Source of the DNA: an uncultured Planctomycetia bacterium
GTDB taxonomy: Bacteria > Omnitrophota > Gorgyraeia > 2-01-FULL-45-10
Assembly (NCBI GenBank): GCA_964534705.1
Contig: CAZHPY010000001.1
Span: forward strand, 1-57,330
Length of the DNA: 57,330 nt
Direction of reading: 5' to 3'
Shown here: piece after piece, positions 7,632-42,807 of the stretch
Position numbering within the stretch: the first letter of the stretch is position 1
How the letters are laid out: every line of letters begins with the position of its first letter
Notes under the pieces: model-generated
Database searches by the model: none
Told to the model about the DNA's origin: nothing
The model's input: only the letters and a program-made list of their open reading frames with translations
Translations under genes and position numbers: made by a program

Positions 7632-7643
7632 TGATACAAACCT

Positions 7644-11991: not shown

Positions 11992-12058
11992 ATTATGTTA
12001 ACACTATTATGATCGATAGTTATACTACATACGATATATATAATTTAACAGTATTCAT

Positions 12059-12087
12059 AGAATATCACGAAAGAGGCCCCTTTACAA
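12059..12087 (-). promoter_or_regulatory. Candidate internal sigma70-like promoter in the AT-rich 107-bp gap
   Basis: Minus strand reads TTGTAA (12087-12082), 17 nt, then TATTCT (12064-12059), upstream of the ATG at 11991. This is one of only three sizeable intergenic gaps. Confidence 0.25.
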
Positions 12088-12098
12088 TAAAACTCAGG

Positions 12099-13616: not shown

Positions 13617-13625
13617 TATTTCCTT

Positions 13626-22225: not shown

Positions 22226-23698
22226 TCAAATACGCTTCAAACGGTTAAATAACTTTCTCAAAAAAACAACCAATCTTAGATCGTATAAATGCTCATACCA
22301 GCCGTATTTAAACCGTAGCTTTATGAGAAAAAACAGCGGAGACAATACAATACGCTTTAAAAAGTTCATCTTCTGGAAACTCTTGCTATAAATAGCTGTT
22401 AAAAGATACGCGTTCTGTGTAAGGAACAGATAGCGTCGATCGATCCATGGATAATTAAAATTTTTGCTAAAAACCATACCCCCTTCTTCCGGCCTATATT
22501 TAATCGCCCACTCTTCAAAGGATGATGGTTCATAATACCGATATTTTTCTTTTATGCTCTCGTACAGCTCGCCTCCGGGATAAACACGGAAGAATTGAGG
22601 GCCGATGATCCGCGCGCGAGGGGTCTGCTCTATAGCATATTTGGCGAGATCTAAAGTCTTGCGATACGACTCTATGGTCTCCCCCGGAACGCCTATAATA
22701 AATGAATAGTTTGGATAAACCTGGGGAACATTCCTGAACTCACTGATAAGCGAGCGGACATTTTCCACCTTTATACCCTTTTTTAAACTATCCAATATTG
22801 TTTGCGAACCGCTTTCGAGCCCGAATTTGAGCCATTCACAGTTTACGCTTGCCAACTTTTTCAAGAAAGCACGATCTAAATAGCCGGAACGATAGCAATT
22901 AGCATGGCATGAGGAGGTCCATTTAAAACTGAATTTATTCTCTTTGTATGCGGCAATAAACTCTTCGACTCTTTTTGAGGATAGGAAAAAATTGTCATCG
23001 CGGAAATATATATGGCGGGGATCATGCTTATGAACAATATGCTTTATTTCATTTAGAAATTCCTCCATGGGACGCGGGCGCCATTTTTGACCGCATACAG
23101 CGTTAAAGCAGAATGTGCATCGATAAGAACACCCCCTCCCTGAAAGTATCTGGATAGACCTGGAAAAGTTATCCTGAGTTGAGGCCGATAACAATTTGTA
23201 ATTAATATCATAAAAAGCGACTGGTTCCGGAGAGTGTGTCCTGATAACGTTTCCGTTCTTTTTATATACCAATCCCGGGACATTATCATAGCCCATTCTT
23301 CCGGAAACAACCTCTTCGAATAAACGCCAGATAGTTTCTTCCCCTTCACTGAATGCGACAAAATCGATATTTTTGTATGCACATGTTTGTTCCGGTTGCA
23401 AGATGGCATGCGGACCGCCAACTATAATAGGTTTATCGGGGTAAGTTTCTTTTATACGATCTACCACCTCTTTCATAGAAGTAACGTCAGTGGTCATCAT
23501 GCTAACACCGACAAGCTTTGCATTACTGATCAGATCGTTTAAGATCGTAAAGAAATCTGTTTTAGGATGTTCGCTTGCGTCCAGGATCTTTACATCCAGG
23601 CCGCGCACATTCGTTAAGTAACTTCCTATCGCCAGCGCCCCCCAGGGATAATTGATGAACCTGCTTCCTGTATCAGGGGTGATCAACAAAACATCCAT
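22226..23698 (-). CDS. B12-binding-domain radical SAM enzyme (class B, probable methyltransferase), copy A
   Basis: 490-aa ORF. The N-terminal Rossmann-like cobalamin-binding domain contains DVLLITPD...IIVGGPH. The radical SAM cluster motif is SGRGCSYRCTFC. Confidence 0.85.
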   Translation of the reverse strand: MDVLLITPDTGSRFINYPWGALAIGSYLTNVRGLDVKILDASEHPKTDFFTILNDLISNAKLVGVSMMTTDVTSMKEVVDRIKETYPDKPIIVGGPHAILQPEQTCAYKNIDFVAFSEGEETIWRLFEEVVSGRMGYDNVPGLVYKKNGNVIRTHSPEPVAFYDINYKLLSASTQDNFSRSIQILSGRGCSYRCTFCFNAVCGQKWRPRPMEEFLNEIKHIVHKHDPRHIYFRDDNFFLSSKRVEEFIAAYKENKFSFKWTSSCHANCYRSGYLDRAFLKKLASVNCEWLKFGLESGSQTILDSLKKGIKVENVRSLISEFRNVPQVYPNYSFIIGVPGETIESYRKTLDLAKYAIEQTPRARIIGPQFFRVYPGGELYESIKEKYRYYEPSSFEEWAIKYRPEEGGMVFSKNFNYPWIDRRYLFLTQNAYLLTAIYSKSFQKMNFLKRIVLSPLFFLIKLRFKYGWYEHLYDLRLVVFLRKLFNRLKRI

Positions 23699-23708
23699 GC
23701 CGCTCCCA

Positions 23709-24377
23709 TTAAGGTTTCTTTTGTGCCCTGCAGACTATCTCTCCTTCGGCGTTAAAACCCATCGTTTCCACGCAATAGCCGGCGCGCACTAACTCGTCTT
23801 TCAGCATAGCGCGTGTGTACTCGCGAAAATGGGTTGTGTCACTTAAATATGGCAAACCCAGGTAGATCAATAGCTGCGTCCGCCAGTTCTCCTGGCTAGG
23901 AACACAAATGAGAAGACGCGAAGCATTAATTCGCTTAAGAAAAGCGACGGGGTCCTCGATATGCTCGAGAAGATGAGAAAGGATGCATACGTTATAGCCT
24001 GCTTCCCTAAAAAAACCGGTAAAGTCAAATTTCCTCAGGTCCGCCTGTACGAACTTTACATTCCCATCGCGCTGGGACATTTTCCAATGCCGCACAAGCT
24101 TCGGGTCAGAGTCAATGCCATATCCTTCTTTGATATATGAAGCGATCTTATTCAGAATAAGTCCGGTACCACAACCTATATCAATAACAACATCTTCCGG
24201 AGAAACATTCTCGGCAAAAAATTCGTAGCGATAGTTAAAAATGTTCTTTGGGTGGATCCCCTTGAAAAATCGTATCAGGAACCGTTCGAAGAGCCGCCTT
24301 TCCACCCAATTTCTTGTTTGACTATACAGCCTGATTATTCCGCGCATCATTTTACTCTTTCCCGCTTCCGCCATCAT
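23709..24377 (-). CDS. Class I SAM-dependent methyltransferase
   Basis: 222-aa ORF with SAM-binding motif I VVIDIGCGTGLI and the downstream ILSHLLEHIEDP. Confidence 0.85.
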   Translation of the reverse strand: MMAEAGKSKMMRGIIRLYSQTRNWVERRLFERFLIRFFKGIHPKNIFNYRYEFFAENVSPEDVVIDIGCGTGLILNKIASYIKEGYGIDSDPKLVRHWKMSQRDGNVKFVQADLRKFDFTGFFREAGYNVCILSHLLEHIEDPVAFLKRINASRLLICVPSQENWRTQLLIYLGLPYLSDTTHFREYTRAMLKDELVRAGYCVETMGFNAEGEIVCRAQKKP

Positions 24378-24386
24378 CGCTCCCTT

Positions 24387-25187
24387 TTAGTCTTTTTTAA
24401 ACACCAGAAGAATCGAGTGTCCGGCGAAAGCCGAAAATAAATAATAATTCATCATTCTGATCAACCGCGCCCACAAACGCTTGGATTTATACACGTTTGA
24501 TAAAAAAGGGTGAAGCAAGGATATCTCCTCCATCAGCCCCTTGCTCGGGTCAAATGCCTTCTTTGACAGCAGCTTAAACCCGAACGGCATTACCTTATTA
24601 ACCACAAAGTCTGCGCACAAAATAAACTGATAAAACGCCTGATCATCTTTTTTATTTTCTTCAAAAGAGTAGAGGCCGCATGTTTTTTTTAACCGCCGTA
24701 ACGGATTAAGGTTCGGGAAACTTAAGAACAAGCAGCCCCCTGGCTTCAGTACTCTTGCCGCTTCTGCAATAATCCCGTCAAAACCTTCCTGAAAGTGCTC
24801 GATAACCCCCAGCGACCAGTATCCATCAAAAAAAGAATCTGGAAAATTTAAGGCCCTGACGTCCTGAATAGACAGCTTTAATCCTGGAAACGCCTTCTTT
24901 GATCTTTCAATCGTGTTTTCCTCGAAATCCACTCCGTAAGCATCGAAGCCCCAAGATGAAAGGCCGAAGACTATGTTGCCGGCGCCACAACCCGCATCAA
25001 TGACTTTTCCTCCGGGCTTGATATATCTGCGCGCGCAAGCCCTGATAAACCAGTTGTTCTTCCCGTCTTCAACAAATGAATGCAGGTCCTGCGATCCCCA
25101 CAATAAGTTCCAGAACGCTTTTCCAGAAACTTTCTGAAGCTCGACTAATCTGTCATTTTTTGTGTCATAATATCTGCATCTATCCAT
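24387..25187 (-). CDS. Class I SAM-dependent methyltransferase
   Basis: 266-aa ORF with VIDAGCGAGNI, a YGVDF acidic loop and LKPGGCLFLSF. Confidence 0.85.
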   Translation of the reverse strand: MDRCRYYDTKNDRLVELQKVSGKAFWNLLWGSQDLHSFVEDGKNNWFIRACARRYIKPGGKVIDAGCGAGNIVFGLSSWGFDAYGVDFEENTIERSKKAFPGLKLSIQDVRALNFPDSFFDGYWSLGVIEHFQEGFDGIIAEAARVLKPGGCLFLSFPNLNPLRRLKKTCGLYSFEENKKDDQAFYQFILCADFVVNKVMPFGFKLLSKKAFDPSKGLMEEISLLHPFLSNVYKSKRLWARLIRMMNYYLFSAFAGHSILLVFKKD

Positions 25188-27142: not shown

Positions 27143-27784
27143 TCATTTTATGGCCACTGCTATCAGTTTGTGAGAGAAACACATAGCTGGAAAGAGTTTA
27201 AATAATATTCCACCTGTCGGAATGACCTCAATATGACCGAAACATTTTTCTAGCAGATCCTTAAGTTGCCCCGCGTCATAGAAGGTTACATGTGTAGGAT
27301 CGTCGCGTAGCATGCGCAAATTACGGTATACCACCGCGTTAATTATATCGTAAAAGCGCTTGATCGGATAATTAGGCGTCATTACTACTAATTTTCCGCC
27401 GGTTCTTAAAACTCGGTGCAATTCACTGATACACGCTGCCGATTTATGGGATAAGATATGCTCGATTACCTGATCGCTGATGACGAGATCGAAGCTTGAA
27501 TCCGGATAAGGCAACGGCCTGTTCTCATCAATAAGTAGCGCCCGCTCCCAGCCGATTTCCCGACACCTCTTTATGCGAAGTGATGAAATATCACAACCGA
27601 AAATATTATCGGCTCCATATCGATCGGATAAAAAGGAGAAATACTTACCATCTCCGCAGCCATGGTCCAAAACTGTCATGGGTTTACTGGGCACATGTTT
27701 ATCAAGAACGCGGACAAAACCATCCGCGACCATTCCTTTCATGGAACGTTCTATTGCGTATTTCTCAAAGTCTTGATGGCCCAT
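27143..27784 (-). CDS. Class I SAM-dependent methyltransferase
   Basis: 213-aa ORF with VLDHGCGDGKY, FDLVISDQVIEHI and LRTGGKLVV. Confidence 0.85.
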   Translation of the reverse strand: MGHQDFEKYAIERSMKGMVADGFVRVLDKHVPSKPMTVLDHGCGDGKYFSFLSDRYGADNIFGCDISSLRIKRCREIGWERALLIDENRPLPYPDSSFDLVISDQVIEHILSHKSAACISELHRVLRTGGKLVVMTPNYPIKRFYDIINAVVYRNLRMLRDDPTHVTFYDAGQLKDLLEKCFGHIEVIPTGGILFKLFPAMCFSHKLIAVAIK

Positions 27785-27796
27785 ATTATCCCTTAT

Positions 27797-28933
27797 TTAA
27801 AAATGTATATCGCAAAACTTCTTCTGGATAGACGTCTTCCAAAAAGAAGGCGACGAAAGCATCTTCATGAACATATTGGCGCTGTTACCGCGTCCAAACG
27901 AAAAATCCACCGAGCGGCGGACTATGCATTTATTCAAAGCAGCTGCGATCTCTTTTTCATCTTCTTTAACATTAAGAACCGAGTCATTCTCTATGCGCGA
28001 CGATTGCCTGGTGCCAATATTGATGCAGGGCACCCCGAATACCGCGGCTTCACGGATACCGGAACTCGAGTTCCCGATAATAAGATTGGCGTGCTTTAGA
28101 AGACTTATATAGTACTCAAAACGCAGAGAACAGAAAACACGAAAATTAGAGTTGTTCCTCAAAGGACCTAACGCGTTATAAACGACTTCCGACCCCTTAT
28201 CATTATTAGGCTCAATAACAACGAATTTCTTTTTAGAATGGAGCAAGGCGGAGACTACTGTTTTAATATTATCCGGGAGCATCGCGATCTCTGTCGTTAC
28301 TGGGTGATAACAAAAAATACCGTACTCCTCGAACGGAATATCATAACGTTTCTTTACTTTCTGTAAAGAAGGCAATAACCGTGACTTCATGATATCAACT
28401 TCCGGAGAACCTATTACGTGGATCGAATCCTGCGACTCCCCCAACTGAATAAGGCGTTTCCGGGAATTTTGATTAGCCACGCAATGAACATGAGATAGTT
28501 TCGACACAGAGTGCCGGATCAAGTCATCGACCGTACCGGAAAGCTCCCCTCCTTCTATATGGGCTACTAAGATATTATTCAGGACGCCTACGATCGCCCC
28601 GGCCAGCGCCTCAGCCCTGTCACCGTGGACGACTATCAAATCCGGACGAAAAACACGGACGTAGTTAGAAAGCCCCTGGATCGTATTGGCTACTATGAGG
28701 TCCATATCGGAGCTGGAGCTTTCCGTTTGGTTCATAAAAAGAAATACGTTCTTAAAATCTGTTTTCAGTATTTCTTCGTATGTCATCCCATGCCGTAAAA
28801 GGACGTGCATGCCAGTCGCAAATATCTTGCATTCGAACTTGCTCGAACGTTCCACTGTCTGCATTAGCGCCTTCAGTTTTCCAAAATCTGCCCTCGTTCC
28901 TGTTATAAAAAGGATATTTTTCTTTTTAGACAT
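27797..28933 (-). CDS. neuC: Hydrolysing UDP-sugar 2-epimerase (NeuC / LegG family)
   Basis: 378-aa ORF with ILFITGTRADFGKL, VHGDRAEALAGA and VAHIEGGELSGTVDD, typical of the hydrolysing 2-epimerase subfamily. Confidence 0.9.
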   Translation of the reverse strand: MSKKKNILFITGTRADFGKLKALMQTVERSSKFECKIFATGMHVLLRHGMTYEEILKTDFKNVFLFMNQTESSSSDMDLIVANTIQGLSNYVRVFRPDLIVVHGDRAEALAGAIVGVLNNILVAHIEGGELSGTVDDLIRHSVSKLSHVHCVANQNSRKRLIQLGESQDSIHVIGSPEVDIMKSRLLPSLQKVKKRYDIPFEEYGIFCYHPVTTEIAMLPDNIKTVVSALLHSKKKFVVIEPNNDKGSEVVYNALGPLRNNSNFRVFCSLRFEYYISLLKHANLIIGNSSSGIREAAVFGVPCINIGTRQSSRIENDSVLNVKEDEKEIAAALNKCIVRRSVDFSFGRGNSANMFMKMLSSPSFWKTSIQKKFCDIHF

Positions 28934-28962
28934 AATACCTCACATTAAAATTAAAAAATGCT

Positions 28963-30006
28963 CTATTTGATATCCTGCCAGGACAATTGAGTATTGACCG
29001 GGAGATCCCTATTGAACGCCTTCCCAAGGACATTCTCGAAATCCCGGGCTTTGATCGAACCGTTACCCGGCCTTTTGCACCAAATATTCTCAGGGCTCAG
29101 GACTTCACCCTTTTTCACATCTTTTATAGTAACAACACAGGCATAAGCAAAATTTATTGTTGGCTGCTCTTCCTTTAAAATGTCTTTTGACCCGCCTAAA
29201 GCAGCAAAGACCGCCCGTGAGCCATCAATGAGATCTTTAAGCTTTACTGGATCGATAGATAACGAGATATCTGGCCCGGGCCAGCTTTTATCTGACGTAA
29301 AATGCTTTTCCAATACCTTCGCACCCAGGGCAACCGCCGCAAAACATGTATAATTACCCGTCGAATGGTCGCTCAATCCCAAGATGGCGTCAGGAAAAGC
29401 CAAGGAAAGCTCTGATATCGCCCCTAGTCTCACCTTGTTATATGGCGTGGGATAGACAGAAGTACAATGCATCAGCACAAATGGGATACGGGCCATCCTG
29501 AGGATCTCCACGGCAGGCCGCACAGTCTCCACGCTATTCATTCCAGTGCTCAAGATTACAGGTTTTTTATACAAAGCAATGTGTTTTATCAACGGATAAT
29601 TATTGCACTCACCCGATCCGATCTTATATGCACAAACATCCATCTTCTCAAGACGTACTGCTGCCGCACGCGAAAAAGGCGTGGAGAGAAATATCATCCC
29701 CTTGGATTCCACGTATTTTTTTATCTTACGTTCCTCGACTTCGGTCAAAGCACACCTAGACATAATATTCCAGATGCTCTCTTTTGCATTACCAGGGATC
29801 ACATTATTAGGGATCATTTCATCCTCGATTACATGCGACTGGAATTTAACGCATTCGCACCCTGCCATATGAGCATCATCAACCATGCGGACAGCCTTTG
29901 CAAAACTGCCATTGTGATTGATCCCTATCTCAGCTATGATCAAAGGAGAATGGCCATTCCCTATGGTGCGGCCTCCGATAACCATCTCTTTTTTTATACC
30001 TGCCAT
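28963..30006 (-). CDS. neuB: Nonulosonic acid synthase (NeuB / LegI / PseI family) with a C-terminal SAF domain
   Basis: 347-aa ORF with PLIIAEIGINHNGS, GLSDHS, and a C-terminal SAF-like segment, VVTIKDVKKGEVLSPENIWCKRPGNG. Confidence 0.9.
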   Translation of the reverse strand: MAGIKKEMVIGGRTIGNGHSPLIIAEIGINHNGSFAKAVRMVDDAHMAGCECVKFQSHVIEDEMIPNNVIPGNAKESIWNIMSRCALTEVEERKIKKYVESKGMIFLSTPFSRAAAVRLEKMDVCAYKIGSGECNNYPLIKHIALYKKPVILSTGMNSVETVRPAVEILRMARIPFVLMHCTSVYPTPYNKVRLGAISELSLAFPDAILGLSDHSTGNYTCFAAVALGAKVLEKHFTSDKSWPGPDISLSIDPVKLKDLIDGSRAVFAALGGSKDILKEEQPTINFAYACVVTIKDVKKGEVLSPENIWCKRPGNGSIKARDFENVLGKAFNRDLPVNTQLSWQDIK

Positions 30007-30027
30007 GATCCTACCCTTAGCCGCCCT

Positions 30028-30672
30028 TCATTTAACCAATTCGACAAAATTATTCAATATCTGCAATCCTACCATAGCACTCTTTTCAGGATGGAACTGG
30101 CAACCGTAAATATTATTTTTATGAACAGCGGAACAAAATGCATTTCCGCCATAATCAGTAGTACTTAATATGTCACCGGCATCATACGGCTGCGCCGTAA
30201 AACTATGCACAAAATAAACATTGCTCTGATCTTGCATGTTATTAAATATAGTCCCGAGCCACCTATCTTTCTTTGGCTCATTTATTCTGTTCCATCCAAC
30301 ATGCGGTATCCTATCATTACAGCCTTTTTTCAGAGATAATCTCACTACCTTTCCATTTAGCAGACCCAAACCTTTTGTCAGGCCGAATTCCTCCCCCTCA
30401 CCCATTAACATCTGCATGCCCAGACAAATCCCCAAAAACGGCTTCCCGGTCTCAACGAACCGATAGATCGTATCAATAAGGCTGTATTTCTTTAAATTAT
30501 CCATCCCTGCCTTAAACGCCCCTACGCCCGGCAAGACCGCAGCGTCATACGAGAAGATATCTTTATTATCCCTGCTTAATGTCGGATCTGCCCCTACTTT
30601 TTTAAGCCCCATCAGTATACTTTTTACGTTTCCTATATCATAATCGATAACAAAGATGCGTTTTCTTTTCAA
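30028..30672 (-). CDS. HisH-like glutamine amidotransferase subunit, copy 2 (in the NulO cassette)
   Basis: 214-aa ORF with IFVIDYDIGNVKS, GICLGMQML, HVGWN and GCQFHPEKS. It is clearly divergent from copy 1. Confidence 0.9.
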   Translation of the reverse strand: MKRKRIFVIDYDIGNVKSILMGLKKVGADPTLSRDNKDIFSYDAAVLPGVGAFKAGMDNLKKYSLIDTIYRFVETGKPFLGICLGMQMLMGEGEEFGLTKGLGLLNGKVVRLSLKKGCNDRIPHVGWNRINEPKKDRWLGTIFNNMQDQSNVYFVHSFTAQPYDAGDILSTTDYGGNAFCSAVHKNNIYGCQFHPEKSAMVGLQILNNFVELVK

Positions 30673-31427
30673 ATTCTCACCTCTACGCTATTTCTACATA
30701 AACGATCCTTGATCTCGACGATCGAGGAAACATCATAATGCAGCATCGAAGCTACTGCTACGGCGTTAACCCCCGTGTTCAGTATCAGATCGCTGATCTG
30801 TTCCGGCGTGCCGGCGCCTCCGCTGGCAATAACCGGTATCGATACGCGTTCCGTCACCTTCTTTATGAGATCAACATCAAATCCTTTTTTCGTACCTTCC
30901 TGGTCAACGGAGGTCAAGAGTATCTCTCCGACGCCAAGGTCTTCAAGCCTCTTTACCCACTCTAAAACATCTACGCCGGTGCACTCTCTACCGCTGTCAA
31001 TATACGCTTCCCAGGAGTTCCCCTTCCTTTTGGCTTCGACTGAACCGACAATGCACTGGGAACCAAATATCCTTGAGGCTTCCTTTACAAAATCCGGCGT
31101 CTTTATAGCCTGTGTATTTATAGCCGTTTTATCCGCTCCGGCCCTTAAGGCTTTTTCGATATCGCCTATAGTCCTTAATCCTCCGCCTATCGTCAATGGC
31201 ACAAAAATCTCCTCGCAGGCTTTTTCAATCAAATGAAAGAGACCGTTCCTGTTGTATAGGCTCGCAACTACATCCATATATATTAATTCGTCAGCGCCAC
31301 CAGTATAATATTTGCGAGCAAAGTCTTCCGGCTTGCCTAAAACCCTGACCCCTTCCAGATGGATCCCTTTTACAAGATTAGGGCCTTTAATATCGAGCCG
31401 GGGGATTATCCTGATCTTCCTGTTCAT
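30669..31427 (-). CDS. HisF-like cyclase subunit, copy 2 (in the NulO cassette)
   Basis: 252-aa ORF with IIPRLDIKGPNLVKG, IGGGLRTIGD and IASGGAG. It has 4-nt overlaps with both neighbours. Confidence 0.9.
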   Translation of the reverse strand: MNRKIRIIPRLDIKGPNLVKGIHLEGVRVLGKPEDFARKYYTGGADELIYMDVVASLYNRNGLFHLIEKACEEIFVPLTIGGGLRTIGDIEKALRAGADKTAINTQAIKTPDFVKEASRIFGSQCIVGSVEAKRKGNSWEAYIDSGRECTGVDVLEWVKRLEDLGVGEILLTSVDQEGTKKGFDVDLIKKVTERVSIPVIASGGAGTPEQISDLILNTGVNAVAVASMLHYDVSSIVEIKDRLCRNSVEVRI

Positions 31428-32845
31428 TTTATATAGTGCCTCGCGCCCCTGAAACTACTATTGTCTCCGAAGTAGAGCTCTCTAAAATCGTTTATCATGG
31501 ATTCTGCTCTTGCCATATCTTTTGACGTATGCATATAGTGATCCGTTATAAGTTCTTTATTGGCGTCAAAAAGAAGGTTGTAAAATTTATCTTCGGGTAT
31601 GTCGGTAAAATTGACAGTGACAAGATCAGAGTTTTTAAAAAGAGTGAAGAAATCTTCGGCTCCGGAAATATATTTTTTCTTTATGGCTTCGTAATAAAGA
31701 TCGCAGCCCGGATAAGGCGTAACAGGCCTTACGGTTCGGAGCTGGTCATAAGTATTATACTTCTTTATAAGCTCCACATTGCTCCTGAGGGACTCTTCAG
31801 TGTCTCCTATATTGCCCCACAGGAAGTTAAGGCCAAGTCCTATGCCGATCCTTCCGGCAATTTCTGCGGCCCGTATATTCTGTCCGACAGTTGTCCTTTT
31901 TTTCATAAGGTCTAACACTGTCTGGTCAGAGGATTCCATTCCAAAATTGAGGAACTGGCAACCGCAATCTTTCAGGGCAACTGCAAGTTCTTCGTCAAAA
32001 AGATCTACCCTGGCATTGCAGGAAAATTTGATCTCCAAGCCCTTATCTTTTAAGGCGTCCCTGAATTCGTATAACCTTTTTTTTGAGAATATGAAAAGCT
32101 CGTCAAGCATAGTGAAATAGTTAACGCCGTAATTTCTTTTCAAAAAATCTATCTCTTTGATTACATTTTCCACGCTCCTGACTCGTATGCCATCCTCCAT
32201 CCTATAACAGAAATTACATCTATTTATACATCCCCTGCTCGATATCATGCCAAGCACAATATCTTTACTATCAGCGCGGAAAGGCTTAAGGCAGGATGTG
32301 TATTTATCCATCGGAAAAAGCGACCACTCCGGAAACGGAATAAGGTCAAGATTTTTTATGGGCTTACGCCTTTCATTCAAAACGGGTCGGCCATCTTGCA
32401 CATAAGCTATGCCTTTCACTTTTGCAAGATCGCCCCGGTTTTCCTTACATCGCACCAGTTCCGTGATCGTCTCCTCAGCTTCTCCTATTACAATGATATC
32501 TGCCTTTGTTTTCTTTAAAATATAATCATGGACAGGTGATGGCCCTGGCCCGCCGAGAATAAGCCATGCGTTTTTCTTGTGAAGACCTACCATCTCGCAG
32601 AGCGGCACTATCGTCTCAATGAACCGCGATGCCAGAAAGCCTATTCCTATCATGTCGAAGTCATTATTATCCAGAAAAACGGCAAGCTCATCATTTGTAT
32701 AATGAAATACGTCCTGGCAGTACACTTCAACATCTATACCGTTATTCCTGAGTATGCCAGAGAGATAGGCCGGTCCCAGAGGAAAATGATTATCATCCTG
32801 ATAAAGGTCGTGTATTATAAAAAGAACTTTTGGTCGCCTATTCAT
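31424..32845 (-). CDS. B12-binding-domain radical SAM enzyme (class B), copy B, embedded in the NulO cassette
   Basis: 473-aa ORF. The N-terminal cobalamin-binding-like domain contains KVLFIIHD...LILGGPGP. The radical SAM motif is SSRGCINRCNFC. Confidence 0.85.
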   Translation of the reverse strand: MNRRPKVLFIIHDLYQDDNHFPLGPAYLSGILRNNGIDVEVYCQDVFHYTNDELAVFLDNNDFDMIGIGFLASRFIETIVPLCEMVGLHKKNAWLILGGPGPSPVHDYILKKTKADIIVIGEAEETITELVRCKENRGDLAKVKGIAYVQDGRPVLNERRKPIKNLDLIPFPEWSLFPMDKYTSCLKPFRADSKDIVLGMISSRGCINRCNFCYRMEDGIRVRSVENVIKEIDFLKRNYGVNYFTMLDELFIFSKKRLYEFRDALKDKGLEIKFSCNARVDLFDEELAVALKDCGCQFLNFGMESSDQTVLDLMKKRTTVGQNIRAAEIAGRIGIGLGLNFLWGNIGDTEESLRSNVELIKKYNTYDQLRTVRPVTPYPGCDLYYEAIKKKYISGAEDFFTLFKNSDLVTVNFTDIPEDKFYNLLFDANKELITDHYMHTSKDMARAESMINDFRELYFGDNSSFRGARHYIK

Positions 32846-33542
32846 ATTGCGCCTTAAGCAGTAATTCTGCCAGTTTCATATCAAGCTCGCTGTCTATGTC
32901 AATAGACCTGCCGGCCGGCATTATATATGCGAATGTTCTTCTGCCAAAAAACCCTTTAACCTTTTTAAGATAATCTATATACGAGGCGTAGATGACACCG
33001 TTTAAGCGATAAGACGCAGGGAATTCCTGCCTGTTCTTATTTTTCATTTTCTGACTCATGAAATCCTTCATGCACCCATCAGGCGGAAGCAGGTTTACCC
33101 ATGAAGGGGGATAACCCGTATCGCATACCGAGATAATAGCCTGCGCATCCTTAACAAACATTTCCTCTATTGAATTATCGATATCCTCGACGGCCCTAAG
33201 GGGTGACGTAGGTTGTAAAAGCACTATTATATCGAACAGCTCATGCTTCTTCCTGAAAAAATCGGTCGTATGCAATATAACATCTACCATGGGAGTTTTA
33301 TCTCCGGCTAATTCTACTGGCCTGACAAATGGAACGAGTGCGCCATATTTAAGCGAGATGCTTGCTATCTCCTCATCATCCGTAGAAACTACAGTCTTAT
33401 CAAGATACTTGCTTTGGAGCGCGCTTTCTATGGTCCACGCAATAACTGGTTTGCCACAAATTTCCCGGATATTTTTTCTCGGAACGCCCTTAGACCCGCC
33501 TCTCGCAGGAATAATACCCAATATCTTCTTGCCCTTATACAT
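32838..33542 (-). CDS. neuA: CMP-nonulosonic acid synthetase (acylneuraminate cytidylyltransferase, NeuA/LegF family)
   Basis: 234-aa ORF with the N-terminal motif LGIIPARGGSKGVPRKNIREICGKPVIAWTI and the later LLQPTSPLR. Confidence 0.9.
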   Translation of the reverse strand: MYKGKKILGIIPARGGSKGVPRKNIREICGKPVIAWTIESALQSKYLDKTVVSTDDEEIASISLKYGALVPFVRPVELAGDKTPMVDVILHTTDFFRKKHELFDIIVLLQPTSPLRAVEDIDNSIEEMFVKDAQAIISVCDTGYPPSWVNLLPPDGCMKDFMSQKMKNKNRQEFPASYRLNGVIYASYIDYLKKVKGFFGRRTFAYIMPAGRSIDIDSELDMKLAELLLKAQYE

Positions 33543-33559
33543 TTATAAGCCTCCCGGCA

Positions 33560-34774
33560 CTATTCAACCTGATGCTTAAGGCACCACTCCCCGTTCGTGC
33601 CCTTGCGCCACAGATGCTCTGAGCGCGCGTTGTCAATAACCTGCCAGAACTCTTCTTCGGATATACCTATGTATGACAGGAACTCTTTAAAATATCTTTT
33701 TGGGAATTCCCCATCGTATTTCTTGACGAGTGCCACACCTTCTTCACGCGTTATATGGCCACGTCTTATTTCCTGTGAGGCGTCATAGGAAGCCCTACCT
33801 ATCCCGAATTTTATAAATGATGTAAAATAATGAAAACCATCTATCTTATCATCGAGGCTGGAATACTTAGAATAAGTCCCTTCAGTCCGTTCCGGATTTA
33901 CCTGAAAACCGCAATTCTCCGACGCATAGTAGAAATTTGACTGAGAATCCCATTTTACATAATAACTGAGGTAATGAACCTCGGTCTTATTTTTCATGAC
34001 TTCATCCATATCTACGGGAAGGTAGAGATTCAGTTCGGAGCGCGGTATTCCGTGTTCGGTCAGCTCGTCAATAGGTAATCCTGACAATTTTATATCAAAG
34101 ATCTTTTCTTTTTCAACGGCAAAATACCTTGATTCCATTAGCGGGGAGTTATTATTGGCTACGGTCGAGTTAATTTCGGCTGGGTTTTCACCATAAATTA
34201 TAAGAGGTATCTTCTTTTCGACCGATAATCGCGGGGATACATTCTTCTGGCCTATTATGAAAGGCTGAAATGGATGAACCAGGTTTTTAAAGGCCAGCTG
34301 CGTCAGTTTTTTGTGAATTTTACCGTTAGGGGTAACCAGTATGTTGTCAAAGCCGGTATGGATCAGATTCTGAAAGTTTCGCCACCCTATATCGGTATAG
34401 ATGTGCGGCGCCCAAGTAACGGTCAGCGGGTTCATTCCATATTTGTACTTCAAAAGATGGGCAGCAAAACAGCTGTCTTTCCCTCCGCTGCTGGCCACTA
34501 TAACATCATAGTATCCGTCATTCCTACGATGCTTGCCAAGAAGCTCTTTTAACAGATTCTCTCTTGCCGTCCAATCGGTCCTGTCTTTTATCTCACCGAA
34601 TCGGCATGCATGGCATACGTCATCTTCATCAAAAGTCAAAGTCGGTTTCCTGTCCGATCTTTGATGCCTTGTCTCTACGACCGCCGAAGGCACCTGATTT
34701 GACATAACGCATTTCTTGCAAAATTTAACTTCTGGCGGGAGACCCCACTTGACTTTAGTTTGGTTAGTTGCCAT
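33560..34774 (-). CDS. N-acetyl sugar amidotransferase (PseA / WbuX / WbpG family), copy 2
   Basis: Contains PPEVKFCKKCVMSNQ...CHAC and the PP-loop VASSGGKDS. I set the start at MATNQTK (34774), which avoids a 61-nt overlap with the upstream gene. The track ORF extends to 34864. Confidence 0.85.
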   Translation of the reverse strand: MATNQTKVKWGLPPEVKFCKKCVMSNQVPSAVVETRHQRSDRKPTLTFDEDDVCHACRFGEIKDRTDWTARENLLKELLGKHRRNDGYYDVIVASSGGKDSCFAAHLLKYKYGMNPLTVTWAPHIYTDIGWRNFQNLIHTGFDNILVTPNGKIHKKLTQLAFKNLVHPFQPFIIGQKNVSPRLSVEKKIPLIIYGENPAEINSTVANNNSPLMESRYFAVEKEKIFDIKLSGLPIDELTEHGIPRSELNLYLPVDMDEVMKNKTEVHYLSYYVKWDSQSNFYYASENCGFQVNPERTEGTYSKYSSLDDKIDGFHYFTSFIKFGIGRASYDASQEIRRGHITREEGVALVKKYDGEFPKRYFKEFLSYIGISEEEFWQVIDNARSEHLWRKGTNGEWCLKHQVE

Positions 34775-34803
34775 GTCTGCTTCTTCTGCCTTGTTTTTCA
34801 AAA

Positions 34804-35784
34804 TTAACTTCTCTTTTTTCCAACAAATATAAACTGTTCCGGAGTAGTAAAACCGGATGAACATAAAAATCTATCTACCATGTTGATCCACTTCGCAACT
34901 TTATGCTCCATGTCTACTGATTCCATCCTTAAGCCTCCTATTATCCTGTCAAAAAAAGAAAAAGTATTCTTGAATTCCAGCTCTTCAAAATTAGCCTTGA
35001 GGGCAGGATACATATCGGAAAAAGCCGCCTCATTGTCCAGCGGCGACTGAACATTCTTCCCGGAAGAATCCTTATAATCAAACTCATTCTTTATCCCTTC
35101 CAATAGTCTTTTTAGCTCCTCCTCATCTTCAGGTAGCTTGACAGGTTGATAGTAATTATTTCCCAGCGCCAATAACATCCTGATAGAATGTATTATTGCG
35201 GCATCCGCATCCCTTAACCTTATCCTTGTCGGTTCGGAAACAAAAATAATGCCTCTCGCAGTAAGTAACGATGATACCTTGCGCAGCACCGCATCCTGAT
35301 CTCCGAAATGGTGAAGGGACGAAGAAAATACGGCCATATCGAATTCATGTTTGCTATTGAACTCATGAATATTCGAACAGATATACTCAAGTCTGCCCCT
35401 GTGTTCCTTATAAGGGTCTTTTCCCGCCACATCTCGCGCTATTTCCACACATTTTTTTGAAATGTCTATGCCTGTCACATTATATCCATAACGGGCAAGT
35501 TCCAATGAAATGTGGCCCGGACCGCACGCAACCTCCAGAACGTTAACATCGCTGGGTTCAGTTTTTAAATAATTACTGATAATCTTTCTTATATAGCTAA
35601 CTACTTCTCCAAACAGCATTTGAGCGTAAGCTGCGTCGCGCCATGGATTATTATAAAACCATTCACACCTACCTGCCGTCCTCAGGTCCGGAACGTGCCC
35701 ATGGCTTACCCTCTCTTCTATCTGGCTGTCAAAAGACCTGGATTCTATCTTCAGTTTTTCCGAATAGTTATTATCATCTTTCAT
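34804..35784 (-). CDS. Class I SAM-dependent methyltransferase
   Basis: 326-aa ORF with VLEVACGPGHISLEL, a TGIDIS acidic loop and LTARGIIFVSE. Its start overlaps the upstream radical SAM stop by 1 nt. Confidence 0.85.
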   Translation of the reverse strand: MKDDNNYSEKLKIESRSFDSQIEERVSHGHVPDLRTAGRCEWFYNNPWRDAAYAQMLFGEVVSYIRKIISNYLKTEPSDVNVLEVACGPGHISLELARYGYNVTGIDISKKCVEIARDVAGKDPYKEHRGRLEYICSNIHEFNSKHEFDMAVFSSSLHHFGDQDAVLRKVSSLLTARGIIFVSEPTRIRLRDADAAIIHSIRMLLALGNNYYQPVKLPEDEEELKRLLEGIKNEFDYKDSSGKNVQSPLDNEAAFSDMYPALKANFEELEFKNTFSFFDRIIGGLRMESVDMEHKVAKWINMVDRFLCSSGFTTPEQFIFVGKKRS

Positions 35785-36785
35785 TAGATCCCCCTCGCTG
35801 CCGTTAATTCATTTTCAATAAAAAAGGTCTTTTTATCTTTTTTAAATACGTTTGCAAATTCGATCCAGCCATTGCAGGACTTGCATAATTTAAGCTCATT
35901 CCACCTGGAATGCAGATGTTTATCTATCATATCTTTTCTTAATTCCGATCCTGTCCATATATCTGATAGAGATTGTTGACTTAAATTACCAAACTTGTTT
36001 TCGTCAAAAAAATCCGCAAAGCAGGAACATACGTTTCCCTTATGGCTTATATTCGGATATAGCCATAAATAAAGGCATGGATACCGCTCTATGCTGACCT
36101 TTTCTATAAAATCAAACTTATCGCCCCAATTGTGCAGAGTTTGACTGTAGGTAAAGACATTGTAATCATTCCAGAATCTTTCAAACTCATCATAATAAGG
36201 CTTGTTCTCTGCGGTATTCAAGAATTGGACACCTATCATGACATCTATATTATTTCTATCCCTCAGTTTTATAGCTTGTATGACATTATTCAGGATCTTC
36301 GAAAAATCCTGATAATTAGTCAACTTTGTGTAAAGGTCTGGATTTATCGTCTGCAACGAAAAAATAAGCTGGTCTACACCGCTCCTTAGAACTTTTAAAG
36401 CCAGGTCTTCGCTGAGTATAAGGCCGTTCGTGTTCAAGGTTATATAATGCAGCCTGTTGTTCTCTTTGATACCGGCAATGATATTAAAGAAATCCGGGTG
36501 TAGAATATTTTCGCCTCTTGTCCCAAACTGAAAATATGTAGGCACATCTTTAGCATCGTTTAACAAGCGCTTTATGATATCCATATCTATAAATTCTTTC
36601 GGAACATTTACAGTGCTCTGCGGGCAGTAACTGCATCGAAATGTACAGTGCCCGCAAAGGTTAAGTGCAAAACCATGCGGCTGGCTTATCTGATATTTTA
36701 TGTTCTCAATCAAATCCGGTTTTATAATACCGTTCAATATAAGTTTCTCACGCTTCTTGTCTAAAGAGCTCTGTTTTTTATTCAA
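35784..36785 (-). CDS. Radical SAM enzyme with a C-terminal twitch/SPASM-like Cys-rich domain
   Basis: 333-aa ORF with the CxxxCxxC motif LCGHCTFRCSYCPQ. The C-terminal GNVCSC...GNLSQQSLSDIW...CKSCNGW resembles an auxiliary-cluster domain. Confidence 0.8.
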   Translation of the reverse strand: MNKKQSSLDKKREKLILNGIIKPDLIENIKYQISQPHGFALNLCGHCTFRCSYCPQSTVNVPKEFIDMDIIKRLLNDAKDVPTYFQFGTRGENILHPDFFNIIAGIKENNRLHYITLNTNGLILSEDLALKVLRSGVDQLIFSLQTINPDLYTKLTNYQDFSKILNNVIQAIKLRDRNNIDVMIGVQFLNTAENKPYYDEFERFWNDYNVFTYSQTLHNWGDKFDFIEKVSIERYPCLYLWLYPNISHKGNVCSCFADFFDENKFGNLSQQSLSDIWTGSELRKDMIDKHLHSRWNELKLCKSCNGWIEFANVFKKDKKTFFIENELTAARGI

Positions 36786-36809
36786 TATGCACGCTCCCTT
36801 TATTCCATT

Positions 36810-38177
36810 TTAATCAGTATGTTTCATAACATCTATACTTAAACCCATCTTATCCCTGCGGTCATCATATCTAATATCATCTGAAACGATAGCATCCTTA
36901 AAATATAGCTTTGCCAGAATCTCTTTTCTTTCTACGCCGAAATCGGTTAAAGTGAATTTTTGATGTGATGCTTTGTATTTTATAAGAAATTCTGCAACAT
37001 CATTGGAAACGGTTGTAGTATTGGCCCAACGTATGTTAACAAGATAGAACCCTTGCTCTTTTCTGAACCGCAGCCTTTCAGGAACGTAAAATCTCTTTCC
37101 CGTCTCTAACTCCTTATAAAAATTTGGGTCGTGTACAAGCTTATAAGGCCTGATGAAACTATTTTTCTCCTGCATCAGCTGGTCGGCCTCATTCAAATAC
37201 CCGTGGTAAGCGCGTGCGGACATCCGGCAACCGGTCTGGCATATGTCAACGTAATCGCAGCCTTCACAGCCTTTATATCTATAGCTTTCGTCATGCCACT
37301 TGATCATATTCTCGTATGTCTTGAAGATTCCTATCTTGAATACGTTGCCATAGCTCTCGGCTTCATGGACACAAGCATGGGCTTCACCATTTGCATTGAT
37401 ACCTATAACGTGTCCGGACTGCGCAGGACATCCTCTCCCAACAAAATCGCTGTATCTTTCCAGATCGCCCAACAGACAAAGAGGATAACTGACAAGCGTC
37501 CCTATCATCATACCTGTATCATTCTTTATCTTGACCAGCTGGTCAAGAACATAGATGGCGTCTTCCTTTAGCATCTCAAATTCTGTTTTAAAAGCATTGG
37601 TTATATTTACAGACGGGACTGTACGAGTCCCGAATATCTTCTGGCATCCCAGGTCATGGCATAGCTTACCGGTGCCGTAAACCTGGTCCCTGTTCATTTT
37701 TGAGACTATCATATTAACGCTTATCCTGAACCTGTTCCGGACCGCAAGTTGGATGGCATTTATTATTCTTTCAAAAGCCCCATCCTGTCTGACGAGATAA
37801 TCGTTCGTTTTCGGATCAAAAGAATTAAGGCTTGTAAGAAAATGGTCTAACCCCGCATCGGACAATCTTTTAATCCTGTCTTCAGTCGCAAGCATCAGGT
37901 TAGAGTTACAGCTCACCGATATATTATTTTTCGTCAACTTTTTTATGGCGTATTCCAGCAGATCGAATCTGGACATTGGCTCACCGCCGCTTAAAACCAC
38001 ATGAAAGATACCGGCCTCAACAAACATCTCAACGAGCCTGTCGACCATCTCGTTTGTCATCGAAAGTGTCTTAGACCCTTCTTCCCGCCAAAAATTGTAA
38101 CAATGCCTGCATTTAAGGTTACAAGCATCGGTTATCTCAAGATTTATAGCTGAAGGAGCTTTAAATATATATTTCAT
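36810..38177 (-). CDS. Radical SAM / SPASM-domain enzyme with a roughly 110-aa C-terminal extension
   Basis: 455-aa ORF with LEITDACNLKCRHCYN at the N-terminus. The SPASM-type Cys pattern is CPAQSG...ACVHE...CEGCDYVDICQTGC. A non-Cys tail follows, encoded at about 36810-37145. Confidence 0.85.
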   Translation of the reverse strand: MKYIFKAPSAINLEITDACNLKCRHCYNFWREEGSKTLSMTNEMVDRLVEMFVEAGIFHVVLSGGEPMSRFDLLEYAIKKLTKNNISVSCNSNLMLATEDRIKRLSDAGLDHFLTSLNSFDPKTNDYLVRQDGAFERIINAIQLAVRNRFRISVNMIVSKMNRDQVYGTGKLCHDLGCQKIFGTRTVPSVNITNAFKTEFEMLKEDAIYVLDQLVKIKNDTGMMIGTLVSYPLCLLGDLERYSDFVGRGCPAQSGHVIGINANGEAHACVHEAESYGNVFKIGIFKTYENMIKWHDESYRYKGCEGCDYVDICQTGCRMSARAYHGYLNEADQLMQEKNSFIRPYKLVHDPNFYKELETGKRFYVPERLRFRKEQGFYLVNIRWANTTTVSNDVAEFLIKYKASHQKFTLTDFGVERKEILAKLYFKDAIVSDDIRYDDRRDKMGLSIDVMKHTD

Positions 38178-41001: not shown

Positions 41002-42807
41002 TCACACCTTTGTATATATGCCTATACCTGCCATGTCCCGGAATTCGGGACATTTATTAAGCAGGTCTTCGTAATTCCCTGAAGCGATTAACCGGCCATT
41101 TTTCAGGAAGAAGATCACATCGCATGCCCTTACGGTCGTAAGCCTGTGCGCAATGATTAATATAGTCTTTGAGCCTGACAAATTGGCCAGAGATTCCATA
41201 AAAGCCTTCTCTATTTCATTGTCGAGCGCCGCGGTCGCTTCGTCCATGACCAGAACCTGCGGATTATTATATAGGGCCCTGGCAATTCCCACCCTTTGTC
41301 TTTGCCCGCCGGACAAGCGGACACCTCTTTCACCTATCTCTGTATTTATCCCGTCGGAAAGCTCTAATATGAACTTATCCAGCTGAGCTAAGCGCAATGC
41401 AACCCACACCCTCGTCTCATCTATATCAGCCGGCTCTACCCCAAAAGCTACATTGTGCTTAATGGAATCATTGCAAAGATATATAGCCTGGGGAATATAC
41501 CCTATTTGATCCTGCCATCCTCTGAGGTTTCCATAAATATCGAAACCATCGACCAAAACACGCCCTTGCGAAGGCTTTAAAAGCCCTGTTATAATATCGA
41601 TCGCGGTCGTCTTCCCTGCGCCCGAAGAACCTACAAAACCTACCGTAGCGTTTTTCGGGATCGCAAGGCTCACGTGATCCAGTGCCAATCTGGAACAACC
41701 TTCATATGAGAACAAAATATTTTCCAACCTAATATCCTTTTGAATGGTTACGGCTCTATCTTCTTTATGCAGTTTTTTAATCCCATCCACCTGTTTAGAG
41801 GCAATCAGGTCATCATAAATTTCATCGAAATAAGCAGAACAAAGCCTTGCGCTGCCCCATCCGGAACTGATACGGTTCAGGCTGGGCATAAGCCTCACGG
41901 CTACGACCGCAAATAACGATATGGTAACAAATATCTTTTCAGGCGCGTTACCGGCCATAAAAGAAAAGATCACAACCGACATGACAAGCCCGACTATCAG
42001 GGCTTCGATCAACAGCCTCGGGGTCCTGCTCAATAACTCCCCCTTGGTCTCCTGCCATGAATACCGATTAGAATGGTATAGATAGCGATCCGCAAAGAAG
42101 TTCTCTTTTCCAAAAATCTTGACTTCCTTGATACTACCTAACCCCTGGTTAACCTGTTGGAGCGCAAACGCTCTGTGTTCAACGGCTACCTTACCCCACT
42201 TATTCAGCTTCTCTTTGCTGAAATAAAAGAAAATAAAAAATATCCCGCCTAAGAATAATGTGGTCGCCAGCGTGAGAATGGGGTTCGCCCACACCAATAA
42301 TAAGAAAAGACACGCTACCAGTACGATCTCGGTAAGAACATAGAAGAGCTGAAGTACTATATTATTCATTATAGACTCAACCAAGTCCAGATTACGCTGC
42401 ATACGCGAAAGATCGCCTTTCAGATGATAAGCGTAAGAACTTGTTAAATACGCGCGAAATAAACGGGATTTGAGATATATTTTTTTCTCAAAAACAAAAT
42501 TTGCCTGCCAGAAAAAAATGATCAACAGCATCATGCTCTTAATAATAAAAACGACTATGACCCCCGTAGCTATTATTATCATAAATTGATGATACGATTG
42601 AAAATTAAAGAAGTCATATACCCTGCGGACCATCTCATTTGTCTTCACAAGATCCGGCTTACCAAGTAAAGCGGTAAAAGGAACCAGCAGCCCGATCCCC
42701 AGTATCTCAAGCAGTGAATTAAATAGGATGGCTATCCCAAAAAGAATAAAATGAAAAGAATCTTTTTTTTCGAAAATATGAGTAAGCCGAACTAATAATC
42801 TAAACAT
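41002..42807 (-). CDS. Fused TMD-NBD ABC exporter (MsbA / PglK type); candidate lipid-linked glycan flippase
   Basis: 601-aa ORF with a six-helix N-terminal TMD, Walker A GSSGAGKTT, signature LSGGQRQRVGIARAL and Walker B VLVMDEATAALD. Confidence 0.9.
   Translation of the reverse strand: MFRLLVRLTHIFEKKDSFHFILFGIAILFNSLLEILGIGLLVPFTALLGKPDLVKTNEMVRRVYDFFNFQSYHQFMIIIATGVIVVFIIKSMMLLIIFFWQANFVFEKKIYLKSRLFRAYLTSSYAYHLKGDLSRMQRNLDLVESIMNNIVLQLFYVLTEIVLVACLFLLLVWANPILTLATTLFLGGIFFIFFYFSKEKLNKWGKVAVEHRAFALQQVNQGLGSIKEVKIFGKENFFADRYLYHSNRYSWQETKGELLSRTPRLLIEALIVGLVMSVVIFSFMAGNAPEKIFVTISLFAVVAVRLMPSLNRISSGWGSARLCSAYFDEIYDDLIASKQVDGIKKLHKEDRAVTIQKDIRLENILFSYEGCSRLALDHVSLAIPKNATVGFVGSSGAGKTTAIDIITGLLKPSQGRVLVDGFDIYGNLRGWQDQIGYIPQAIYLCNDSIKHNVAFGVEPADIDETRVWVALRLAQLDKFILELSDGINTEIGERGVRLSGGQRQRVGIARALYNNPQVLVMDEATAALDNEIEKAFMESLANLSGSKTILIIAHRLTTVRACDVIFFLKNGRLIASGNYEDLLNKCPEFRDMAGIGIYTKV

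Follow-up and report, generated by a model that had tools for sequence, protein, structure and literature searches.

A class B radical SAM clade linked to CMP-nonulosonic acid genes in Bacteria and Archaea, and the putative Neu-type acetamidino cassette that contains one of its members in an Omnitrophota contig

The 57,330-nucleotide stretch of contig CAZHPY010000001.1 analyzed here (hereafter the window), which derives from an uncultured Planctomycetia bacterium affiliated with the Omnitrophota in GTDB, encodes a nonulosonic acid (NulO) cassette of seven genes with an embedded class B radical S-adenosylmethionine (SAM) enzyme. This enzyme represents a clade whose members are linked to genes for cytidine monophosphate (CMP)-activated ulosonic acids across phyla of both Bacteria and Archaea. 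We give about even chances to the view that the cassette makes a CMP-activated, neuraminic acid (Neu)-type, 5-acetamidino NulO, which is further modified by the dedicated radical SAM enzyme. NulOs cap cell surfaces and flagella, and immune recognition, the binding of phages and the charge of the surface depend on them. To our knowledge, all known NulO tailoring is polar chemistry, namely N-acyl exchange, amidination and O- or N-methylation.

Gene families were assigned by Pfam and NCBIfam profile scans of the window open reading frames (ORFs) using curated cutoffs. The ORF list contains seven consecutive minus-strand ORFs at 27797-34864, as follows:

33560..34774 (longest ORF 34864), minus strand: WbuX/PseA/PtmG-type N-acetyl-sugar amidotransferase, the PP-loop enzyme of the acetamidino triad (TIGR03573 354.9 bits, cutoff 203.2)
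32838..33542, minus strand: CMP-nonulosonate synthetase, NeuA-like cytidylyltransferase (PF02348 CTP_transf_3 86 bits, cutoff 22.6)
31424..32845, minus strand: class B (B12-binding + radical SAM) enzyme, putative C-methyltransferase on a CMP-ulosonic acid (PF02310 B12-binding domain 44.3 bits, cutoff 32.1; PF04055 69 bits)
30669..31427, minus strand: HisF-like (WbuZ/AglZ-type) cyclase-fold triad subunit (PF00977 His_biosynth 216 bits)
30028..30672, minus strand: HisH-like glutaminase, triad subunit (PF00117; TIGR01855 214 bits, cutoff 105)
28963..30006, minus strand: NeuB-type nonulosonate synthase of the Neu5Ac-synthase clade (PF03102 241 bits, PF08666 SAF 39 bits)
27797..28933, minus strand: NeuC-type hydrolyzing UDP-HexNAc 2-epimerase (TIGR03568 402 bits, cutoff 235.9)

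The domain matches have E-values of 1e-19 to 1e-120 and are thus not due to chance; all seven genes were recovered at the positions and with the domain families given by the original prediction, which had been made from the DNA sequence alone. The overlaps that it had described on both sides of the radical SAM gene are also seen on direct reading of the junctions: the NeuA stop and the radical SAM start share 8 nt (ATGAATAG), and the radical SAM stop and the HisF start share the 4 nt ATGA. A further 4-nt overlap lies between the HisF and HisH ORFs, and the cassette genes, including that of the radical SAM enzyme, are translationally coupled. For WbuX, the ATG at 34774, 29 nt past the TAA of the upstream methyltransferase gene, is a more plausible start than the longest-ORF start at 34864.

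More than 2000 homologues of the radical SAM enzyme were retrieved at E < 1e-20; the best 120 are all full length, 62-69% identical and without informative names. By sequence, the enzyme falls into a close-knit orthologous clade (52-70% identity) that has no name and sits on a long stem in the radical SAM tree, apart from the window's other B12-binding radical SAM enzyme. A reference scan with one genome per species yielded 31 loci, with the best match (70% identity) in the Omnitrophota, and neighborhood statistics were computed on 38 sampled loci, 32 of which have at least 10 kb of flanking sequence. The loci derive from Omnitrophota, Saccharibacteria, several other phyla of the candidate phyla radiation (CPR), Dehalococcoidales and Nitrospirae, and among the archaea from Methanoregulaceae, Methanomicrobiales, Methanosarcinales, Woese-, Pace- and Nanoarchaeota and Thermoplasmata. 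More distant loci belong to Planctomycetota, Desulfuromonadales, Nitrosopumilales and Selenomonadaceae.

Two approaches, mapping of the window proteins onto the loci and label-free clustering of all neighborhood ORFs, gave the same answer. Across the 38 loci, the most frequent neighbors, apart from the radical SAM family, are NeuB (25 loci), NeuA (21), DegT (17), NeuC and short-chain dehydrogenases/reductases (SDR; 15 each), WbuX (13) and radical SAM/SPASM proteins (12). NeuA or NeuB lies within 10 kb of the radical SAM gene in 27 of the 32 loci with sufficient flanks, and the immediate neighbor is most commonly NeuA (9 loci), followed by WbuX or HisF (8 loci). In six out of six independent metagenome contigs, CTP_transf_3, NeuB or Epimerase_2 is found within 7 kb according to precomputed Pfam annotations, and a Brocadiaceae member of the sister subclade is located inside a CTP_transf_3/NeuB cluster. 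The conserved linkage to NulO genes on which the original prediction depended is therefore borne out by both surveys. ORFs of ~450-490 aa were also considered as a conserved partner of the radical SAM enzyme and were rejected, as they are heterogeneous (flippase, Capsule_synth, class III aminotransferase and others).

Within its 57-kb glycan locus, the window encodes numerous methyltransferases as well as three radical SAM enzymes besides that of the cassette, and unrelated B12-binding radical SAM paralogues are also present in many of the sampled loci, which would fit an enzyme that modifies another sugar or the assembled glycan and co-occurs with NulO genes only by way of surface-glycan loci. 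We regard this explanation as highly improbable given the specificity of the adjacency: NeuA, WbuX/HisF and NeuB are immediate neighbors with ORFs that often overlap or abut, the preferred neighbors do not include glycosyltransferases, and the arrangement is kept in different phyla and in both domains amid otherwise dissimilar loci.

The entire cassette recurs in one Omnitrophota locus (L001), one Methanosarcinales locus (L015) and one Nanoarchaeota locus (L021). L015 (9331-17222) and L021 (244-9488) share NeuA, the radical SAM enzyme, NeuB, NeuC, HisF/HisH and WbuX with the window, with protein identities of 38-41% for NeuA and 52-63% for the other cassette genes. Since the cassette is common to the bacterial window and archaeal metagenome-assembled genomes, these sequence comparisons imply that the module has been transferred between Bacteria and Archaea.

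Neu-type, legionaminic acid (Leg)-like and short-NeuB contexts are intermixed within the radical SAM clade, and the idea that the enzyme tracks the NulO class was rejected on this ground. As the clade appears to serve all three kinds of pathway alike, its target should be a feature common to CMP-activated 3-deoxy-2-ulosonic acids, and the preference for NeuA as neighbor suggests that the enzyme acts at the CMP-sugar stage. The short NeuB-like synthases (277-300 aa) have no SAF domain and directly adjoin a HAD phosphatase; they were found at L008 7513-8959, L009 15535-17069 (Methanoregula), L033 4207-5632 and L042 2057-3419 (Brocadiaceae). These loci of CPR, Methanoregula and Brocadiaceae also carry CTP_transf_3, class III or DegT aminotransferases and members of the radical SAM clade, and their gene content is that of a putative third type of ulosonic acid pathway, via a 9-phosphate route. 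In loci L035 and L036, Leg-type genes and a formyltransferase stand in the radical SAM context, with a PIG-L deacetylase in L035 only. This architecture is that of the Ca. Kuenenia NulO cluster as depicted in the SugarBase preprint, a cluster that makes formylated and free-amine NulOs.

Sequence and model are consistent with a class B architecture of the enzyme. The cysteines of its CxxxCxxC motif (C206, C210 and C213) are conserved without exception among 33 orthologues, and its AlphaFold2 model (predicted local distance difference test score 87.7, predicted TM-score 0.88) matches AprD4, TsrM, MgmA, OxsB, CysS and TokK in Foldseek with E-values of 1e-16 to 1e-21, a result which supports the class of the enzyme, not its chemistry. 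Matches to NCBIfam families of B12-binding radical SAM enzymes (BchE, HpnJ, PhpK, MgmA, BzaD, HpnR, KedN5, TIGR04295 and others), 20 in all, fall far under the cutoffs, the best being BchE with 136.5 bits against a cutoff of 481; as no cutoff is approached, the clade is unnamed. Among characterized class B enzymes, methylation is the commonest activity and rearrangements are known too; GenK, GenD1, Fms7 and MoeK5 C-methylate sugars (PMC9204698), and Fom3 C-methylates a cytidylylated substrate made by its partner cytidylyltransferase (PMC8158854). By analogy with these enzymes, C-methylation appears the most likely chemistry, at even odds or slightly better.

Three points weigh against this assignment. 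AprD4 is at once the best fold match (TMq 0.73, E 2.6e-21) and the best PDB sequence match (76 bits), the top NCBIfam matches BchE and HpnJ are non-methylases, and cobalamin binding is a property not readable from sequence, which leaves its use by the enzyme presumptive. AprD4, a sugar 1,2-diol dehydratase of apramycin biosynthesis, has a B12-like domain that binds no cobalamin and needs the reductase AprD3. The enzyme might thus act on the NulO or its precursor by another radical chemistry, such as AprD4-like dehydration or deoxygenation, OxsB- or HpnJ-like rearrangement or ring contraction, epimerization or oxidation: AprD4, top by both sequence and fold, acts on an amino sugar, BchE is a cyclase, HpnJ contracts the ring of a glucosamine-derived moiety, OxsB is among the fold matches, and the class performs rearrangements besides methylations. 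We nevertheless consider such chemistry rather unlikely. The AprD4 model and chain align to the core alone (residues ~193-404), whereas the models of BchE, PhpK, BzaD and MgmA align from about residue 20 and cover the N-terminal domain, as expected of genuine cobalamin enzymes. No reductase or aminotransferase partner is conserved adjacent to the radical SAM gene in the neighborhood survey, which counts for methylation because a dehydratase would need one. Furthermore, most contexts are Leg-type, and finished Leg sugars offer no vicinal diol to a diol dehydratase. The class B methylase chemistry foreseen in the original prediction is hence plausible, and it falls short of being established with a dehydratase as the nearest relative in structure and sequence. 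A search for representatives of class B radical SAM proteins returned 44,196 cluster representatives at E <= 0.001; these include giant proteins of 1500-2300 aa (P0138, P0141 and others) with four or five separate B12-binding radical SAM-like stretches, which look like multi-domain fusions of class B units.

The WbuX/HisH/HisF triad is kept beside the radical SAM gene in 11-13 loci, and the WbuX of the window shares 71% identity with its orthologue in L001 and 56-57% with those in L015 and L021. The HisF-like protein scores just under two cutoffs, with 278.2 bits to TIGR03572 (WbuZ; cutoff 299.7) and 279.1 bits to TIGR00735 (hisF; cutoff 294.55). Of the profile matches proposed in the original prediction, TIGR03573 and the PF02310+PF04055 pair were obtained as expected and TIGR03572 was narrowly missed. 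By analogy with characterized triads, the three proteins would form an acetamidino group on the sugar. A second full triad is encoded in the window by WbuX2 (8189-9316; TIGR03573 241.6 bits), HisH2 (6052-6687) and HisF2 (5286-6059). Genes for an LPG_synthase_TM protein (6684-7631) and a hexapeptide acetyltransferase (7644-8192) are interspersed with those of the triad; a GFO/WbpB-like oxidoreductase and a further acetyltransferase are located nearby (10334-11991). This second triad (5286-9316) probably amidinates a different, hexose-derived sugar such as a diacetamido-uronic acid, and the earlier wording that the cassette has "its own" triad is apt, since the window carries two.

As to the identity of the NulO, the window NeuB shares 56.5% identity over 340 residues with N. 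meningitidis NeuB (1xuu), scores 429 bits against it versus 153 bits against PseI (8h2c), and hence falls inside the NulO synthases. The pseudaminic acid (Pse) synthase model TIGR03586 gives 228 bits (cutoff 340), under the score of the NeuB model, domain scans found no PseG/PseH-type domains (Glyco_tran_28_C, GNAT) in any window ORF of at least 150 aa, and a NeuC-type epimerase is present, all in line with the proposed exclusion of Pse. In a tree of 26 NeuB-like proteins from the radical SAM loci, the window sequence groups with those of L001, L015 and L021 and with the meningococcal enzyme. NeuB proteins encoded beside NeuC, DegT, SDR and Hexapep genes, the canonical Leg set, form a separate clade with 29-37% identity to the window NeuB, and the short NeuB proteins without SAF domain form a third. 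A Leg-type dehydratase/aminotransferase/acetyltransferase set is absent from 27143-38177 and from the syntenic cassettes L001, L015 and L021. The best PDB match of NeuA is the CMP-Neu5Ac synthetase 6ifd (144 bits). As NeuB groups with the meningococcal enzyme and the conserved cassette lacks Leg-type genes, a Neu-type skeleton is favored over Leg; the "Neu/Leg" assignment of the original prediction is thereby narrowed to its Neu part, its Leg part being disfavored. Together with the triad, a Neu-type skeleton makes 5-acetamidino-neuraminic acid (Neu5Am) the favored core sugar. To date, this sugar is known only from a tentative detection, as a 'putative Neu5Am' in the CMP-sugar pools of C. jejuni (10.64898/2026.04.20.719630).

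Several observations weigh against a Neu-type product. NeuB misses the equivalog cutoff of TIGR03569 (360 bits, cutoff 399.65), the NeuB tree was built without a characterized LegI sequence, and NeuC matches human GNE (4zht) and A. baumannii LegG (5zlr) equally well (197 bits each) and is therefore uninformative as a discriminator between Neu and Leg. The nearest environmental NeuB relatives (70-72% identity) are found in a different cluster with a thiamine pyrophosphate (TPP)-dependent enzyme, an NTP_transferase and a divergent epimerase; clade membership was for this reason rejected as proof of a Neu5Ac/ManNAc substrate. Finally, a Leg-type precursor might be supplied by the DegT, SDR and acetyltransferase genes that are present in other parts of the window. 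The cluster with the close NeuB relatives (L038-L041, ~4000-15000) has the order SDR, ~605-aa TPP-dependent enzyme, CBS-domain NTP_transferase, NeuB and divergent Epimerase_2 (~30% identical to the window NeuC), followed by a radical SAM gene and/or methyltransferases, a GT2 glycosyltransferase and LPG_synthase_TM; it lacks CTP_transf_3 and appears to represent an uncharacterized pathway.

The NulO could accordingly be a Leg-type sugar, e.g., a Leg5Am7Ac derivative as in Legionella pneumophila, with a diacetamido-trideoxyhexose precursor supplied by genes elsewhere in the locus, where DegT (46463-47569), SDR (47576-49437) and hexapeptide acetyltransferase genes (7644-8192, 10334-10924) are available. 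The equal scores of NeuC to LegG and GNE would agree with this, as would the mostly Leg-type contexts of the radical SAM clade in metagenomes and the Legionella Leg cluster itself, in which neuA/B/C-like genes stand together with an amidotransferase and HisH/HisF. We consider this product unlikely, however, in view of the NeuB grouping and of the wide misses of the distant DegT against the LegC model (232.8 bits, cutoff 420) and of the distant SDRs against the LegB model (at most 186.6 bits, cutoff 475). These DegT and SDR genes, which also miss the PseB and PseC cutoffs, are located 12-20 kb from the cassette, next to PMT_2 and other sugar genes, and the syntenic cassettes contain no such genes.

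For the favored Neu5Am-based product we infer the order of steps, the CMP-sugar as substrate, the use of cobalamin and the methyl transfer. In the proposed pathway, NeuC would hydrolyze and epimerize UDP-GlcNAc to ManNAc, NeuB would condense ManNAc with phosphoenolpyruvate, and NeuA would form the CMP-sugar. WbuX is predicted to activate the acetamido carbonyl of the 5-N-acetyl group with ATP, after which ammonia from HisH, channeled via the HisF-like barrel, would replace the carbonyl oxygen to yield the amidine. The radical SAM enzyme could then use a 5'-deoxyadenosyl radical to take a hydrogen from an unactivated carbon in the part shared by all 3-deoxy-2-ulosonic acids, and methyl transfer from methylcobalamin would give a NulO that is C-methylated and has at least ten carbons. 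The class I methyltransferases on either side of the cassette, along with the two additional radical SAM proteins, might introduce more decorations.

Two mass spectrometry studies (10.64898/2026.04.20.719630; PMC8157484) describe alpha-keto acids that are linked to CMP and have a backbone elongated to C10 in Magnetospirillum gryphiswaldense, with no gene assigned, and CMP-NulOs with a mass increment of 14.01 Da in the anammox bacterium Ca. Kuenenia. A NulO-dedicated, C-methylating radical SAM enzyme would explain both, and the Brocadiaceae relative in a CMP-ulosonic acid cluster is relevant here; we treat the connection as a lead only. When the proteobacterial relative L027 served as query in a homologue search, no Magnetospirillum was among the matches listed. 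In its boldest form, which we put forward tentatively and at somewhat less than even odds, the clade would be the missing enzyme that acts at the stage of the CMP-sugar and converts nine-carbon, sialic acid-type sugars to C-methylated ulosonic acids that have ten carbons or are branched, which would explain the C10 CMP-keto acids, and its substrate in the window would be the barely documented Neu5Am. As a rarer variant, the enzyme might rearrange the NulO skeleton in the manner in which OxsB and HpnJ rearrange theirs. Full-text literature searches, in which pseudaminic acid matches were judged by titles and abstracts, found no connection between radical SAM enzymes and the biosynthesis of nonulosonic, legionaminic or pseudaminic acids, in agreement with the earlier statement that no characterized NulO pathway uses a B12-binding radical SAM enzyme; in a C. 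jejuni HS:19 paper, the only mentions are of a radical SAM in the capsule locus and of a sulfatase maturase.

The cassette is not a self-standing island but part of a larger glycan locus, which occupies the whole window on the minus strand. Further tailoring genes flank it without gaps on both sides, and the features outside the cassette include:

55198-57327, minus strand: LptD/OstA-like gene (weak match), near the locus start together with Rml genes and UDP-sugar dehydrogenases
41002-42807, minus strand: ABC exporter, upstream of the cassette
36810..38177, minus strand: radical SAM protein, NirJ/AhbD-like, probably an accessory tailoring enzyme (PF04055 90 bits)
35784..36785, minus strand: radical SAM/SPASM protein, probably an accessory tailoring enzyme (PF04055 + PF13186)
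34804..35784, minus strand: class I SAM methyltransferase, probable tailoring enzyme and candidate for N-/O-methylation (Pfam Methyltransf_31/11/25)
27143..27784, minus strand: class I SAM methyltransferase directly downstream of NeuC, possible O-methyltransferase (Pfam Methyltransf_11/23/25)

Farther along, the locus encodes glycosyltransferases, a Wzy-like protein, an MBOAT protein and WecG, and ends with a Bac_transf initiating transferase. The weak LptD/OstA-like match and the similarity to L001 tentatively point to a diderm, possibly of the Omnitrophota. Several of the flanking tailoring genes have counterparts in related cassettes: homologues of the methyltransferase at 27143-27784 (29-34% identity) are found near NeuA/NeuB in L002, L008 and L020, and a 41% identical orthologue of that at 34804-35784 directly follows WbuX in L021. 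The SPASM family was found again in 12 of the 38 loci, and the NirJ/AhbD-like protein has a 67% identical orthologue within the L001 cassette (5910-7334), between NeuC and WbuX, and a 39% identical one adjoining NeuA/NeuB in L031 (4823-6175). The functional module therefore probably extends over 27143-38177 and is larger than the seven-gene cassette. This brings the radical SAM enzymes of the locus to four or more. One of these is a second B12-binding radical SAM protein (22226-23698), which is 22-25% identical to that of the cassette, has its best NCBIfam matches, far under the cutoffs, to HpnJ and PhpK, and is flanked by two class I methyltransferases and several glycosyltransferases (region 22226-25187). 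The GC content of ~0.44 dips to 0.37-0.39 at positions 1-3000, the 3' end of the locus, and at 35000-37000, the latter dip covering the SPASM/radical SAM gene pair.

Overall, the interpretation of the original prediction, a C-methylated and/or acetamidino-substituted NulO, is supported, and the in silico analyses yielded none of the results that it had named as refuting; the chemistry of the radical SAM enzyme is putative. The NulO core and the amidino triad are of known kinds, and the new elements are a NulO-dedicated class B radical SAM clade that spans both domains and a dedicated cassette for a Neu-type, amidino sugar. If the proposed function is correct, a cobalamin-type radical enzyme in bacterial and archaeal NulO operons would bring carbon-carbon bond chemistry to sialic acid biology, offer a possible genetic basis for the unexplained higher-carbon keto acids of the mass spectrometry studies, and serve as a functional anchor for one clade of the very large and mostly uncharacterized class B radical SAM superfamily. 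It would also suggest that ultra-small CPR and DPANN cells spend cobalamin on the decoration of surface glycans, and would define a new family of surface sugars widespread in CPR, DPANN, methanogens, Omnitrophota and anammox relatives. With seven to eleven genes, the cassette is compact enough to make heterologous expression feasible.

Compared with known systems, the cassette shares the hydrolyzing 2-epimerase, the SAF-domain, phosphoenolpyruvate-condensing synthase and the CMP-synthetase in one operon with N. meningitidis (SiaA/SiaC/SiaB) and E. coli K1, although its NeuC is closer to GNE and LegG than to SiaA (40.7 bits). In contrast to these pathways, it adds the amidotransferase triad, the class B enzyme, extra radical SAM genes and methyltransferases, and it lacks a NeuD/NeuO-type O-acetyltransferase and a polysialyltransferase. 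The Leg5Am7Ac clusters of Legionella pneumophila and Campylobacter jejuni likewise combine a NulO core with a WbuX/PtmG-type amidotransferase, with HisH/HisF-like genes in Legionella, and a class I methyltransferase adjoins the amidotransferase both there (PtmG and the N-methyltransferase PtmH) and in the window. Unlike these clusters, the cassette has no LegB, LegC or LegH and its NeuB falls in the Neu clade, and we know of no B12-binding radical SAM enzyme in known Leg clusters. The triad has the same three components as WbpG/HisH2/HisF2, WbuX/WbuY/WbuZ and the archaeal AglX/AglY/AglZ; its presumed substrate is a nonulosonate, whereas theirs is a hexuronic or 6-deoxy amino sugar, and its HisF-like subunit differs from the Wbu system in falling just under the WbuZ cutoff.

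Among radical SAM enzymes, AprD4 differs in that the N-terminal domain of the window protein scores as genuinely B12-binding and no equivalent of AprD3 is conserved beside it. Fom3 of fosfomycin biosynthesis resembles the setting in the window in its B12-binding and radical SAM architecture, its cytidylyltransferase partner and its CMP-bearing substrate, but no close sequence kinship is demonstrated, and Fom3 acts on cytidylyl-2-hydroxyethylphosphonate, as opposed to the sugar acid presumed here. GenK, GenD1, Fms7 and MoeK5 are cobalamin-type enzymes that methylate unactivated sugar carbons, like the activity proposed for the window enzyme. They act on aminoglycoside or moenomycin intermediates in actinomycete secondary metabolism, whereas the candidate substrate here is a nucleotide-activated ulosonic acid and the clade resides in surface-glycan loci of CPR, DPANN, methanogens and Omnitrophota.

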